Below, piece after piece: positions 24,720 to 34,810 of a DNA stretch of 64,000 nt. Source of the DNA: a virus; the IMG/VR virus record IMGVR_UViG_3300045988_077100, positions 2,602 to 66,601 of that record, one strand, 5' to 3'. The stretch's first letter is position 1; every line of letters begins with the position of its first letter. The notes beneath the pieces were generated by a model that had not been told where the DNA came from, ran no database searches, and worked only from the letters and a program-made list of their open reading frames with translations. Made by a program: the position numbers and the translations under genes.

Positions 24720-25237
24720 GCGTTTGTTTGGATGATCTGAACAGCCTGCCGGAGCGCTACCGGAAGCAGGTACAACAGCAGATGCAGGCCCAGCAGATCG
24801 ACCGGACGGCCAGAGTAATGGCTCAATTCGTGACGGAGGAGAAGGGGAAGGCGGAAGCGGCGGCGGAGGGCAAGCGCAAGCACCATAACCACCCCACCGC
24901 CCGGACCCTGCCCAACGGAACGGAGCACACCTTCGACAGCCGCAAGGAGGCGGCCCGGTATGACGAGCTGGCACTGCTCAGCAAGGCAGGGGCTATCCGG
25001 GACCTGCGGCTCCAACCTCAATTCACGCTGAAAGAAAGCTACATCACGGCCAACGGCGACCGAAGCCGCGCCGTGACGTATCGGGCGGACTTCTCCTACG
25101 AGGAGCGGGGGAAGGACGGCACATGGAATCTGGTGGTGGAGGACGTAAAAGGCCCCTCCACGAAAAAAGACAAGACCTACCGCATGAAGGTGAAGCTGAT
25201 GCAGGACATGAAGCACATTACCGTGCGGGAGGTATGA
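24716..25237 (+). CDS. DUF1064-like protein (putative endonuclease/resolvase)
   Basis: ..HTFDSRKEAARYDELALLSKAGAIRDLRLQPQF..YRADFSY..VVEDVKG.. matches my memory of DUF1064. Confidence 0.6.
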   Translation: MSVCLDDLNSLPERYRKQVQQQMQAQQIDRTARVMAQFVTEEKGKAEAAAEGKRKHHNHPTARTLPNGTEHTFDSRKEAARYDELALLSKAGAIRDLRLQPQFTLKESYITANGDRSRAVTYRADFSYEERGKDGTWNLVVEDVKGPSTKKDKTYRMKVKLMQDMKHITVREV

Positions 25238-25623
25238 ACGGAAAGGAGATATGCCCGGTGGAGACCGTAACTGTGATCGTGCGGGCTGTGCTGCCCTGGG
25301 ACAGCGCAGACGGGAAAGACCGGATCGAGATATGCACCCATGACCGGCAGAGCCAGATCGACTACTGCCTGAACCACTGCCCCTATGCAGAATGCGTGAA
25401 CTGCGCGGGTGGAGGTCGGACTACCAGCCGCGGCGGACGGCCACCCCTTCTGCGGGAAGCGGAAATGCAGAAGCTGCGGGAACTGCTGGAAGCCCGGACA
25501 GCCCCGGCGGACATTTGCCGGGAGATGCACATGGACGCGGATTTTCTAAGTCGGTGCAAACGGAAACTGCGGAGGGAAAGAAAACGAGACGATTATTTGA
25601 AAATGCAAAAGGGGGTGATTTAG
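25234..25623 (+). CDS. Hypothetical Cys-rich protein (129 aa; start uncertain)
   Basis: ORF track. An in-frame GTG at 25258 has a better-spaced AAGGAG. Confidence 0.5.
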   Translation: MNGKEICPVETVTVIVRAVLPWDSADGKDRIEICTHDRQSQIDYCLNHCPYAECVNCAGGGRTTSRGGRPPLLREAEMQKLRELLEARTAPADICREMHMDADFLSRCKRKLRRERKRDDYLKMQKGVI

Positions 25624-27481
25624 GTGAAGCATTATGGAGATGTCACAAAAATTTACGGAAATGAAGTAGAACCCGTGGATTGTGTGATAGGTGGTTCACC
25701 TTGTTAGACAGGACCTTTCCATTGCCGGAAAGAGGGCGGGGCTTGCCGGGGCGCGTTCCGGCCTGTATATGGAGCAAATACGGATTATCAAGGAGATGAG
25801 AGAACGTGACAGAAGAATGGGGCGAACAGGTGAGTTTGTGCGACCTCGGTATATGGTCTGGGAAAATGTCCCCGGAGCCTTCTCAAGCAACGGCGGAAAA
25901 GACTTCGCAGCCGTCCTCGAAGAAGCCATCCGCATCGCAGAACCGGAAGCCCCCAATATTGAAGTGCCTGAAAAAGGTTGGAACACCTGGGGGGGATACC
26001 ACGATGAAATGGGAGGACGATGGAGCGTTGCGTGGCGAGTGCTCGATGCGCAACACTGGGGAGTCCCCCAACGTCGCCGTAGAATCGCGCTTGTCGCAGA
26101 TTTTGGAGGCGACACCGCATGGGAAATATTGTTTGAGCGGCAAAGCATGTCAGGGTATCCTGCGGAGAGCGGAGCGCCGGGGGAAGGCCCTGCCGGGGAT
26201 TCTGAAAACGGTGCTGGTGGAGCAGGCAAAGACGCCGGATCAGTAATCTGCCTCCAAGGGAATGCAATCGACCGGGCTGATACCGCCGGATGCAACGGGA
26301 AGGGCTGGAAAGAAGATGTCTGCTATACGTTGAACACCATTGGCCGTCCGGCGGTCTGCGCCGGTCTGGACTGCCTTACTCCGTGGGATTGCCAGAGCAA
26401 GCGGGTATACAGCGAAGCCGGTGTGATGCCAACGTTGCCAGCCGGAGAAAACAGCGGTCAGAATCAGGAATCCGTACTGTGCGCCGGGTTTAAGCTGGGG
26501 AACAGCGAACAAGCCCGGAGCATCGGATACGCCGAGGAACAGGCCCCTACGCTGAACGCAGAGTGCGGAGGAAACAAACCGGCGGTGATGTGCCTGAACG
26601 ATCAAGGCGGGAATGTGATGGGCGTGAGCCATGATGTTTCCGGGACGCTGAGAGCACAGGAGCATGGGCACCAGCCCTCCATTCTGGATATGAGCCACGC
26701 CTGCGACGTCATCCGGGACTGCGGCGAGGTAGCTCCCAGTCTGCAAGCCCGTATGGGAACCGGCGGCAACCGAATACCGCTGACGTACCAGAAAACAACC
26801 GGAACTTTATCGCCCGGAGCACACGCAGGGAGCTATAACGGGCAGGACGCTTACAACGATATGCTGGTGGTATCAAGCGAAATTTCCCCAGCATTAAGAG
26901 CAAAAGCCAATGACCCATACCGAACAGATATGGCCGCGTATGTCGCAAGCGTAGATTGCCGAAATTTCACCGAGGGCGGGGAGATCAACGGAACCTTGCA
27001 GGCAAAGGAAAGCGAAGGCCAAAGCCTGAATCTGAACAATACGGTCCGCCAAAACATGGTGGTTCGCCGTCTGACCCCGCTGGAGTGCGAACGGCTTCAG
27101 GGGTTTCCGGACGGATGGACAGATATTGGAGATTGGGTCAAAACAGATAAACGCGGGCGCAAAATAAAAGTGAAAGGAAGTGCGGACAGCCCCCGGTATA
27201 AGGCACTGGGCAACTCCATCGCCCTGCCGCCGTGGAAATGGCTGCTAAAACGGCTGTGCGGCAACTACGAGCGGGACGCCACAATGGCGAGTTTGTTCGA
27301 TGGAATAGGCGGGTTCCCTTTGATTTGGGAGCAACTGAACGGGCGCGGGACTTGTCTGTGGGCCAGCGAGATCGAGGAGTTCCCCATCGCCGTGACCAAA
27401 CGGCGGTTCGGCACGGTGGAGGAACCGGGAGACATGGGGCGGTTTTTGTTCCCATGCGGAAACGAAAGGAGCGGGACATGA
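25624..27481 (+). pseudogene. DNA (cytosine-5) methyltransferase, motif-permuted and interrupted within the PCQ catalytic motif
   Basis: Frame 1 gives ..VIGGSPC then TAG (25705-25707). Frame 2 from 25709 gives QDLSIAG.., ENV, QRRRR, RLTPLECERLQGFPDGW, ALGNSIA. Motif I/II (SLFDGIGG..WASEIEE) is fused at the C-terminus (27284-27481). Confidence 0.75.
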
Positions 27482-27675
27482 AGCACAGCAACGATTACTG
27501 GGAACAGGAAGCCTATTGGGAGCTGGAACGGCGGCGGGCGGAGAAAAACCGCAAAACCAGAGAGCAGCGGCGGCGGGAGCGGGCGGACACCTCCGCCATG
27601 ATCGGCGGAATTTGCTTTTTACTGCTGCTGGCGGTTCTTTTGGCAAATGTCATGCTGGGAGGCGATACGCTATGA
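27478..27675 (+). CDS. Small membrane protein (65 aa)
   Basis: Basic N-terminus then GGICFLLLLAVLLANVML; AAGGAG SD; ATGA overlap. Confidence 0.5.
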   Translation: MKHSNDYWEQEAYWELERRRAEKNRKTREQRRRERADTSAMIGGICFLLLLAVLLANVMLGGDTL

Positions 27676-27908
27676 ACAGGGGAAACCGGAGAGCGGGGGA
27701 GCACCGGGTACTGGAACCGTGCGCCCTGTGCGGAATGTACAGTGGGGAGCGGATGGAGGACGCGGCGCCACCCTTTGACTTCGCCGTGGTGTGCGCTTCC
27801 TGCGGGGCGCGGACCAGACCGTATCACGGTCTGAACTGCGCCACAAAAGCGTGGAACCGGGGAGACGTTTACCGCCCGGAGAAAGGAAAACACTATGTAT
27901 CACTGTGA
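27672..27908 (+). CDS. lar: Lar-family restriction-alleviation-like protein
   Basis: CxxC..CxxC zinc ribbon plus ..ATKAWNRG.., resembling the Lar signature AxxAWNRR. Confidence 0.55.
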   Translation: MNRGNRRAGEHRVLEPCALCGMYSGERMEDAAPPFDFAVVCASCGARTRPYHGLNCATKAWNRGDVYRPEKGKHYVSL

Positions 27909-34715: not shown

Positions 34716-34810
34716 CATGGTTGTCAGCATGGGGATAGGGTAGCTCCCGAAAAGCGGTTGCCTTGCCGCCTTCCCCAGCTTACAAAAAGGCAAATTACGA
34801 AAGGCGGTAA

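Follow-up and report, generated by a model that had tools for sequence, protein, structure and literature searches.

A conserved TAG plus one base at the catalytic cysteine codon of a naturally permuted phage C5 DNA methyltransferase gene: a candidate programmed recoding site

The 64-kb stretch of viral DNA analysed here (the window; IMGVR_UViG_3300045988_077100, positions 2,602-66,601, with all positions below given in window coordinates) carries a gene for a cytosine-5 (C5) DNA methyltransferase whose catalytic Pro-Cys-Gln motif is broken, exactly between Cys and Gln, by an in-frame amber codon and one further base. That this TAG+N insert marks a conserved recoding site at the catalytic Cys is well supported by its distribution and codon constraint among relatives. 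As judged from sequence comparison, the gene is very probably functional and expressed by way of a programmed recoding event. The mechanism that we favour, with only modest confidence, is a +1 ribosomal frameshift at UGU-UAG, and we lean to a similar degree towards regarding the locus as a working member of a large, naturally permuted family of C5 methyltransferases carried by phages of gut Clostridia.

The gene is laid out in two frames (it, its parts and its neighbours are all on the + strand). A Shine-Dalgarno (SD)-like AGGGGGTGAT at 25610-25619, read directly from the sequence, would serve the GTG start at 25624-25626, which adjoins the stop codon TAG of the upstream gene (25621-25623); the arrangement GG[G/A]GGTGATTTAG-GTG is kept in all lineages with the insert, also where the upstream gene differs. 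The head of the methyltransferase, in frame 1 (25624-25704), comprises 27 codons (VKHYGDVTKIYGNEVEPVDCVIGGSPC) that encode motif III (YGDVTKI) and motif IV as far as GGSPC, aligns to M.HhaI residues 57-81 (phmmer, PDB) and ends on TGT, the codon of the catalytic Cys (25702-25704). Four extra bases follow, the amber TAG (25705-25707) and an A (25708). The body, in frame 2 (25709-27481), starts with CAG at 25709 (QDLSIAGKRAGL), ends with TGA at 27479-27481, and contains in order the rest of motif IV (QDLSIAGK), motifs VI and VIII, a variable region, and motifs IX, X, I and II. An earlier sequence-only reading had placed TAGA between Cys and Gln and had remarked that the long open reading frame (ORF) from GTG 25691 lacks the catalytic Cys. 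Inspection of the ORFs bears out both statements; it is this ORF, 25691-27481 and 596 aa long, that gene callers choose. Uninterrupted relatives read GGSPCQDLS, and the two halves that TAGA keeps apart here, GGSPC in frame 1 and QDLSIAGK in frame 2, belong to one polypeptide only given recoding.

The insert is widespread. Many of the closest database proteins begin MVHLVRQDLS... and represent the same truncated ORF, on many contigs and with differing variable regions, and an identical GGTGGTTCACCTTGT-TAGA-CAGGA was present in 21 of 80 related IMG/VR loci. When IMG/VR was scanned with a pattern degenerate at the Ser codon, at every third position and at the four bases of the insert, at least 119 loci were recovered in which the insert was always TAG+N (TAGA in the majority, TAGC in about a quarter, TAGT once); separate control scans of IMG/VR returned no locus with a TAA or TGA version and none with a 1-nt insert at this position. 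TAG+N was found at the identical position in 157 fetched loci, representing 64 different 205-nt alleles and no fewer than 11 diverged lineages, with N being A, C or rarely T (U), never G. The head was open in all 139 complete loci. We found no copies of these heads lacking the insert, the same codons without it occurring in four unrelated loci only. Near-identical bodies were also found behind uninterrupted heads (e.g. P0019 versus P0038), which argues that the body is a working methyltransferase module.

This distribution leaves a practically negligible probability that the insert is an assembly or sequencing artefact, or a private and recent inactivating mutation. Such an explanation has only the a priori oddity of a 4-nt insert to recommend it, whereas IMG/VR, ENA, Logan and NCBI all contribute independent assemblies, many in all, with the same insert. 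The sequence-only reading had named an assembly artefact as the outcome that would undo it, and this outcome is contradicted by the records. One TAGA-type protein (P0113) is recorded in 176 blocks of an assembly collection, and the four places shown for it are from four different samples.

Codon comparisons show that both flanks of the insert are under purifying selection. Among 11 lineage representatives, codons 2-22 of the head gave a ratio of non-synonymous to synonymous differences per site (pN/pS) of 0.26 (pS 0.84, pN 0.22), and the 40 codons after the insert gave 0.31 (pS 0.79, pN 0.25). For the five codons just before TAG the ratio was 0 (pS 0.26, pN 0), nearly all of this pS coming from two outlier lineages. 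The head is open in 64 of 64 distinct alleles with abundant synonymous variation, and from the first codon after the insert (Q) the amino acids are near-invariant and the synonymous sites vary freely. The three origins that had been suggested from the window alone find little room here. Against a decayed tandem duplication, tblastn detected no second copy or fragment in the window, and the permuted motif order described below is shared by about 95% of family representatives. Recent inactivation is at odds with the fixation of the insert in at least 11 lineages, given that their synonymous sites have reached saturation (pS about 0.8) and that head and body are both under purifying selection. 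A catalytically dead derivative is unsupported, given a conserved head that carries motifs III-IV and the Cys codon and given the same bodies behind uninterrupted heads.

The 15 nt before TAG, GG[T/A]GG-N-TCA-CCY-TGT, behave differently from either flank, their synonymous sites being frozen. Third-position entropy of these five codons is 0.12, 0.51, 0, 0.12 and 0 bit, compared with 1-1.9 bits in nearby codons, and those used in the window (GGT GGT TCA CCT TGT) are rare synonyms in the phage (10%, 10%, 5%, 10% and 24%, respectively). At the same positions, 44 distinct uninterrupted alleles have GGC as the first Gly codon (38 of the 44), five different Ser codons, all four Pro codons, and TGT or TGC in a ratio of 21 to 23. 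Within the site, variation is limited to GGTGG to GGAGG (several lineages) or GGCGG (one lineage), a change of the second Gly codon from GGT to GGC or GGA, and CCT to CCC. These changes are silent in frame 1 and radical in frame 2, where CCT to CCC replaces Leu by Pro and GGT to GGC or GGA replaces Val by Ala or Asp. As well, frame 2 is closed by a stop 6-7 codons ahead of CAG, both in the window and in several other lineages, so that the change of frame is confined to the conserved block.

On these grounds (synonymous-site entropy and rare codons) the proposed recoding site is GGTGGT TCA CCT TGT TAG A, at 25690-25708, a sequence found once in the whole window. It is laid out as an SD-like GGUGG followed by CCU, UGU and UAG as the E-, P- and A-site codons, respectively, and then N. 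The UAG is invariant in the 157 loci, as an in-frame stop of the prfB type should be, and the Cys codon in alleles with the insert is always the wobble-paired UGU. GG[T/A]GG, a perfect GGAGG in several lineages, is enriched in place of the GGCGG typical of uninterrupted genes (one lineage having GGCGG), at a distance of 7 nt from UGU and of 4 nt from CCY. Two selected frames, a frozen synonymous block and an invariant stop together form the signature of programmed recoding.

As we envisage the event, ribosomes initiating at GTG 25624 would decode 27 codons, the last being that of the catalytic Cys, and at that point UGU would occupy the P site and UAG the A site. Most of these ribosomes would probably terminate there, and a fraction would shift by +1, skipping the U, reading AGA and going on in frame 2. 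The full-length product would read ...GGSPC-R-QDLSIAGK..., with S instead of R in TAGC and TAGT alleles; the expected junctions are ...VIGGSPCR / QDLSIAGK for TAGA and GGSPCSQDLSIAGK for TAGC alleles. The shift may be helped by the SD-like GG[U/A]GG, by the fixed UCA-CCY-UGU, in which the Cys codon is wobble-paired, and by a context unfavourable to termination (N = A or C); A and C after a stop codon are said, following Poole, Brown and Tate, to be weaker contexts for termination. A likely purpose would be to keep the output of a putatively many-specificity methyltransferase low or conditional. We infer the ribosomal event, its place at UGU-UAG, its efficiency and the enzymatic activity of the product from these patterns.

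Several observations weigh against this mechanism. There is no classical slippery site, because tRNA-Cys (anticodon GCA) has no +1 re-pairing on GUU. The SD-like element stands 7 nt from the P-site codon and not at the 3 nt of prfB, where, according to Weiss, Larsen and Atkins, an SD 3 nt upstream reportedly stimulates +1 shifting, and lineage L201 has GGCGG in place of GG[T/A]GG altogether. The predicted product would carry an extra residue, Arg or Ser by allele, right after the catalytic Cys. In most alleles a frame-2 GTG six codons before CAG would allow re-initiation there. Finally, the body contains further frame breaks in about 10 alleles that we call 'beta' (see below) and in 12 other relatives with the insert.

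Known parallels to the proposed shift share some of these features and lack others. The +1 site of prfB likewise has an in-frame A-site stop, an upstream SD-like element and a wobble-paired P-site codon, and as a site it is conserved across homologues. However, in prfB the codon is the slippery CUU-U, on which the tRNA re-pairs, and the SD stands at 3 nt, whereas the window gene has UGU without re-pairing, an SD-like element at 7 nt and a UAG stop, which is specific for release factor 1, and shows no evident autoregulatory logic. Shifting at non-slippery sites is known from antizyme (UCC-UGA-U), yeast Ty3 (GCG-AGU-U) and Euplotes (AAA-UAA-A) (review PMC5009743). These sites resemble the proposed one in shifting without P-site re-pairing and with the first A-site base occluded, but all of them are eukaryotic. 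In the open-access literature we found no bacterial or phage precedent for a non-slippery +1 shift, none in a DNA methyltransferase, and no frameshift site in a phage C5 methyltransferase.

The frame-2 GTG raises the question of a two-piece enzyme, in which the 27-aa head, ending in Cys, would be released at TAG, translation would restart at GTG 25691, and the 596-aa body would assemble with the head non-covalently. The presence of that GTG six codons before CAG in most alleles and the purifying selection on the head peptide would both suit such an arrangement, and split C5 enzymes as well as complementing fragments are known (M.AquI; PMC5944983). Yet no SD precedes GTG 25691, the codon is missing in the GGAGG lineages, and the lineage of L149, L222 and L223 has no ATG, GTG, TTG, CTG or ATH in its seven open frame-2 codons (the L149 and L223 bodies are short). 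Invariance of TCA, CCY and TGT would also go unexplained, given the radical changes of frame-2 residues at these codons (Leu/Pro, Val/Ala/Asp). To our knowledge a chain break directly after the nucleophile is without precedent, and we consider a two-piece enzyme unlikely.

The 4-nt distance between the SD-like element and CCY suggests another outcome, a product without the Cys that would be a catalytically dead DNA-binding protein or decoy, as in the third of the sequence-only reading's suggestions. Its origin could be initiation at GTG 25691, or a +1 shift with CCY in the P site to give ...GGSP-V-R-QDLS.... With GG[U/A]GG-N-UCA upstream of CCY, the spacing is near that of prfB, and CCC-U alleles would let tRNA-Pro re-pair perfectly. 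For such a shift, however, a stop directly after CCY would serve better, and in every allele the Cys codon stands between Pro and TAG. In addition, conservation extends to every catalytic motif of the body, and uninterrupted, clearly catalytic genes use the same bodies. We rate a Cys-less product as quite unlikely.

Variation of the fourth base (A, C or U), as if it were untranslated, could be taken to mean that all four bases are hopped over, restoring an exact Pro-Cys-Gln (GGSPCQDLSIAGK), or that UAGN is read as a quadruplet codon; otherwise Arg and Ser would have to be interchangeable beside the nucleophile. UAGN is an efficient engineered quadruplet codon, and a mini-hairpin of 4-5 bp, C-Y-U-G with C-A-R-G, could place UAG in its loop, all 12 of the 12 CCC alleles having CAG. 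The co-variation is nevertheless not significant (about 0.7^6, from about six independent heads), tRNA-Cys has no matching landing codon, and no tRNA with an 8-nt anticodon loop or a CUA anticodon is present in the 64-kb window. Hopping or quadruplet decoding is thus very unlikely.

Other ways of reading the insert were tried and set aside. A suppressor or quadruplet tRNA was sought with ARAGORN under default and relaxed settings, and none with CUA or a four-base anticodon was reported in the window; the tRNAs it did report were Trp(CCA), Gly(CCC), an odd one with a 6-nt loop, and weak candidates. The window uses the standard code: ORF coverage is 83% under it and is not meaningfully raised by treating TAG as sense; reading TAG as Gln would still leave the frame wrong. 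Neither was a conserved downstream RNA structure found, synonymous sites being free from the first codon after TAGN and minimum-free-energy folds differing between lineages. Two mini-hairpins can be drawn, GGUG/CACC and CYUG/CARG (the latter with UAG in the loop), with co-variation too thin to count.

In this family the catalytic motif is a preferred site of mobile elements. Inteins (CFPAGTLVLT...) lie between Pro and the catalytic Cys in P0187, P0242, P0243 and P0258 and at loci L214-L219, in permuted and canonical genes alike, and in L149 a gene for an HNH endonuclease interrupts the sequence about 70 nt after CAG, shortly past motif IV. The conserved block might be a signal at the level of DNA (a homing-endonuclease or intein target, or an immunity allele) in a gene tolerated as a pseudogene. 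In favour of this, the intein insertion point, GGSP|C, falls in the same motif, and the HNH gene of L149 is 23 codons downstream. The flanks of the intein alleles are, however, unrelated to those of the TAGN site, for which reason we rejected a link between the two. The conservation is one-sided (15 nt on the 5' side plus TAG) with a sharp end, unlike a co-conversion tract, and purifying selection on head and body persists across saturated divergence. We therefore hold a DNA-level signal to be highly improbable.

Regardless of how the frame is restored, the order of motifs in this gene is distinctive. The protein matches PF00145 in four stretches (88.8 bits, cut-off 22; Pfam), and motifs I (FxGxG), VI (ENV), VIII (QxRxR), IX and X could all be located and aligned to M.HhaI and M.HaeIII. 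Motif VI, MVWENVPGAF, is at 25853-25882; motif VIII, GVPQRRRRIALVA, at 26060-26098; motif IX, RRLTPLECERLQGFPDGW, at 27065-27118; and motif X, YKALGNSIALP, at 27197-27229. The S-adenosylmethionine (AdoMet)-binding motifs are both in a permuted, C-terminal position, motif I (SLFDGIGGFPL) at 27290-27322 and motif II (CLWASEIEEFPIAVTKRRFG) at 27353-27412. When the head was joined to the body without the four extra bases and the restored protein compared with the PDB by phmmer, its residues 3-62 aligned to M.HhaI 57-116 (motifs III-V), 133-157 to 146-170 (VIII), 477-497 to 269-289 (IX) and 554-599 to 15-58 (motifs I-II). Coordinates and alignment alike give the order III-IV-VI-VIII-variable region-IX-X-I-II, as the sequence-only reading had it, and comparison with homologues, which that reading had called for, shows that permutation and TAGN are both shared.

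By this alignment the circular permutation is seamless and the chain is broken between motifs II and III, that is, the enzyme is of Type B topology. Its N-terminus lies between II and III and motif X is linked to motif I, and the same holds for uninterrupted relatives; the Type H order (IX-X-I...VIII, with the N-terminus in the variable region) is not matched. One such uninterrupted relative, in phage record MT835513, has the identical order, MKHLGDITK...GGSPCQDLS...MGSLFDGIGGFPL...RFGGE*. When the uninterrupted relative P0079 served as HMMER query against all of 1.84 billion cluster representatives, 3,576 matches fell below 1e-30. Among the best 150 of these, the chain starts at motif III in most, and motif I follows PCQ in 93 and precedes it in 5 of the 98 representatives (50% identity) in which both motifs were located. 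That about 95% of such diverse representatives have the permuted order indicates that the permutation is ancient, and it is well supported as a family trait and not a lesion. As for other orders in the same family, P0190 is canonical, P0249 is Type-H-like, and the chain of P0127 has ...I-II-III-IV... placed after IX-X. These three proteins and the 'beta' alleles are possible intermediates of permutation by duplication.

Type B topology has been reported absent from nature, the natural permutants then known all having their break within the variable region (Slaska-Kiss et al., 2018; PMC5944983), and our search of the open-access literature found no description of natural Type B permutants. Engineered Type B (Class B) enzymes, cp62 M.MpeI and cp58 M.SssI, likewise have the N-terminus between II and III and the C-terminal helix (motif X) joined to motif I, and Type B constructs were the most active among the engineered topologies (PMC5944983). 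Those are laboratory constructs, whereas here the topology is the dominant natural form of a family, in at least 93 clusters at 50% identity among the best 150 matches. M.BssHII, M.Alw26I, M2.Eco31I, M.Esp3I and M2.BsaI are also natural permutants of the ten C5 motifs, but as Type H enzymes they are broken in the variable region (order IX-X-I...VIII) and not between II and III.

The variable region that separates motif VIII from motif IX (26099-27064, about 320 aa) is modular by inspection, with about eight T-L-type modules, and may confer many target specificities. Relatives of 563-743 aa gain or lose whole blocks of it; BLAST detected no internal repeat within it. Structure prediction of the enzyme was of no help, AlphaFold2 giving P0079 a confidence (pLDDT) of 27, unusable, from a 25-sequence alignment of low diversity. 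The C5 enzymes of Bacillus phages SPR, phi3T, rho11s and H2 are likewise phage-borne and have a long modular variable region of short T-L-type modules between VIII and IX, with a presumed role in self-protection against many restriction systems; they differ from the window gene in their canonical motif order and far fewer modules. This likeness draws on the general literature of these enzymes together with inspection of the sequence.

A second coding frame appears to run inside the gene. ORF-X (25806-26246, +) lies in the third frame, +1 relative to the body, and encodes 146 aa from a GTG start, ending ...SRLSQILEATPHGKYCLSGKACQGILRRAERRGKALPGILKTVLVEQ; AAGGAG, which is K-E-M in the enzyme frame, stands 10 nt upstream of this GTG. 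ORF-X spans motifs VI-VIII and the linker of the methyltransferase. Relative to a WGVPQRR anchor, its frame is open for at least 78 codons upstream in about 135 of 146 distinct alleles, with a start codon 74-84 codons upstream in about 125 of them; the one frame that remains besides this and the enzyme frame is full of stops. Among 15 diverse lineages, amino-acid identity over the second half of the 62 codons that follow the anchor is 0.50 in the ORF-X frame versus 0.26 in the enzyme frame, with a conserved pattern LSQILE..P.KY.LS.KAC.GIL.RA.RRGK.LP..L, and synonymous variation in the enzyme frame collapses over 26099-26218, a measure partly confounded by relatedness. At 130-150 codons, ORF-X recurs in permuted and canonical relatives from 36% to 58% GC, including canonical-order genes of the 36%-GC Streptococcus phage Javan422 (L230; an open run of 130 codons, the next longest being 31) and of Ruminococcus phage NatCom_28775 (L231), and also at L001 5017-5448. 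It matches only phrog_16143, labelled 'DNA methyltransferase', and gave no sequence match in Pfam, NCBIfam or PDB. AlphaFold (AF2) predicted a disordered N-terminus and a confident three-helix C-terminus; Foldseek against the PDB returned nothing below E = 4.9. We did not find such an overlapping ORF described in the open-access literature. Taken together, these comparisons suggest that ORF-X is real, and we offer it as an additional lead. In the 'beta' alleles (about 10, L084 and L205 among them, all with the TAGN insert), the enzyme frame is closed by a stop after about 200 aa, and the variable region and motifs IX-X-I-II are reached by the ORF-X frame instead.

With a head in frame 1, a body in frame 2 and ORF-X in frame 3, one may conceive of a three-frame unit in which UAG+N is a dedicated four-base signal, decoded without slippage (as a quadruplet, or by a 4-nt hop restoring Pro-Cys-Gln), and acts as a valve that would set the ratio of methyltransferase to ORF-X during infection. 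We put this forward as a long shot.

Frame is also at issue elsewhere in the family. The permuted gene of the cultured Faecalibacterium phage FP_Toutatis (NC_047915 gp14/gp15), with intact PCQ, contains a G9 tract (L203 1821-1829), and that of Lelie, also a cultured Faecalibacterium phage, likewise permuted with intact PCQ, a G14 tract (L204 1821-1834). G9 versus G14 splits the gene and toggles the enzyme frame against the ORF-X frame, which looks like phase variation. In this respect these two relatives would gate expression by frame as do phase-variable methyltransferases with homopolymer tracts; the window gene differs in having no repeat tract and an interruption that is fixed and not mutable.

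The gene lies within the replication/recombination module of a tailed phage, downstream of genes for RecT, SSB, a DnaD-like replisome organiser, a helicase loader and a DUF1064 resolvase. A 65-aa gene (27478-27675), without a family match in Pfam, follows with its ATG overlapping the methyltransferase stop (ATGA), an arrangement also seen in relatives. Next comes a 78-aa Cys-rich zinc-ribbon protein (27672-27908), Lar-like by a PF14354 match (E = 5e-4; 20.7 bits, below the 28.6-bit cut-off), whose orthologue in relatives bears the same weak mark. A sub-threshold match to Lar (restriction alleviation) two genes downstream would fit an anti-restriction gene cluster. Close relatives of the methyltransferase are found on viral contigs of 36-92 kb, one TAGC-type copy is in a Dysosmobacter metagenome-assembled genome, and members of the family also occur in cultured Faecalibacterium phages.

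Some further features of the window deserve mention. The 14-nt string GGACATGAAGCACA occurs at 25204-25217 (+), about 420 nt before the gene start, and again at 27475-27488 (+), where it coincides with the ATGA stop/start overlap; the repeat may be due to chance. An int-alpA RNA (RF02996) is predicted at 34728-34790 (+; Rfam 40.9 bits, gathering score 35.8). A cluster of tRNAs and tRNA-like elements at 250-1320 (-) includes the tRNA-Gly(CCC) and a 77-nt tRNA-Trp(CCA), the latter not reported by Rfam at the gathering threshold. The tRNA at 505-579 has a 6-nt anticodon loop, CGAAGU, with a Phe-like GAA and without U33, and elements at about 775-880 and 1070-1140 share GCAGAYG...CRTCTGCACCA ends.

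If our reading of the site is correct, it would be a compact (about 19 nt), well-conserved bacterial or phage recoding site outside the slippery-codon rule, and a test case for how stop codons, the identity of E- and P-site codons and SD-like pairing take part in setting the frame. It also serves as a warning that hundreds of 'frameshifted' phage methyltransferase genes in databases would carry a wrong annotation as ORFs truncated at the N-terminus. A topology that was the most active one among laboratory constructs, and that had been reported absent from nature, is the dominant form of a very large phage family, and, with canonical and Type-H-like relatives in the same family, natural Type B enzymes bear on the evolution of circular permutations. 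In this family, recoding, poly-G tracts and a nested overlapping gene appear to add layers of expression control to an anti-restriction enzyme that abundant phages of the human gut carry.

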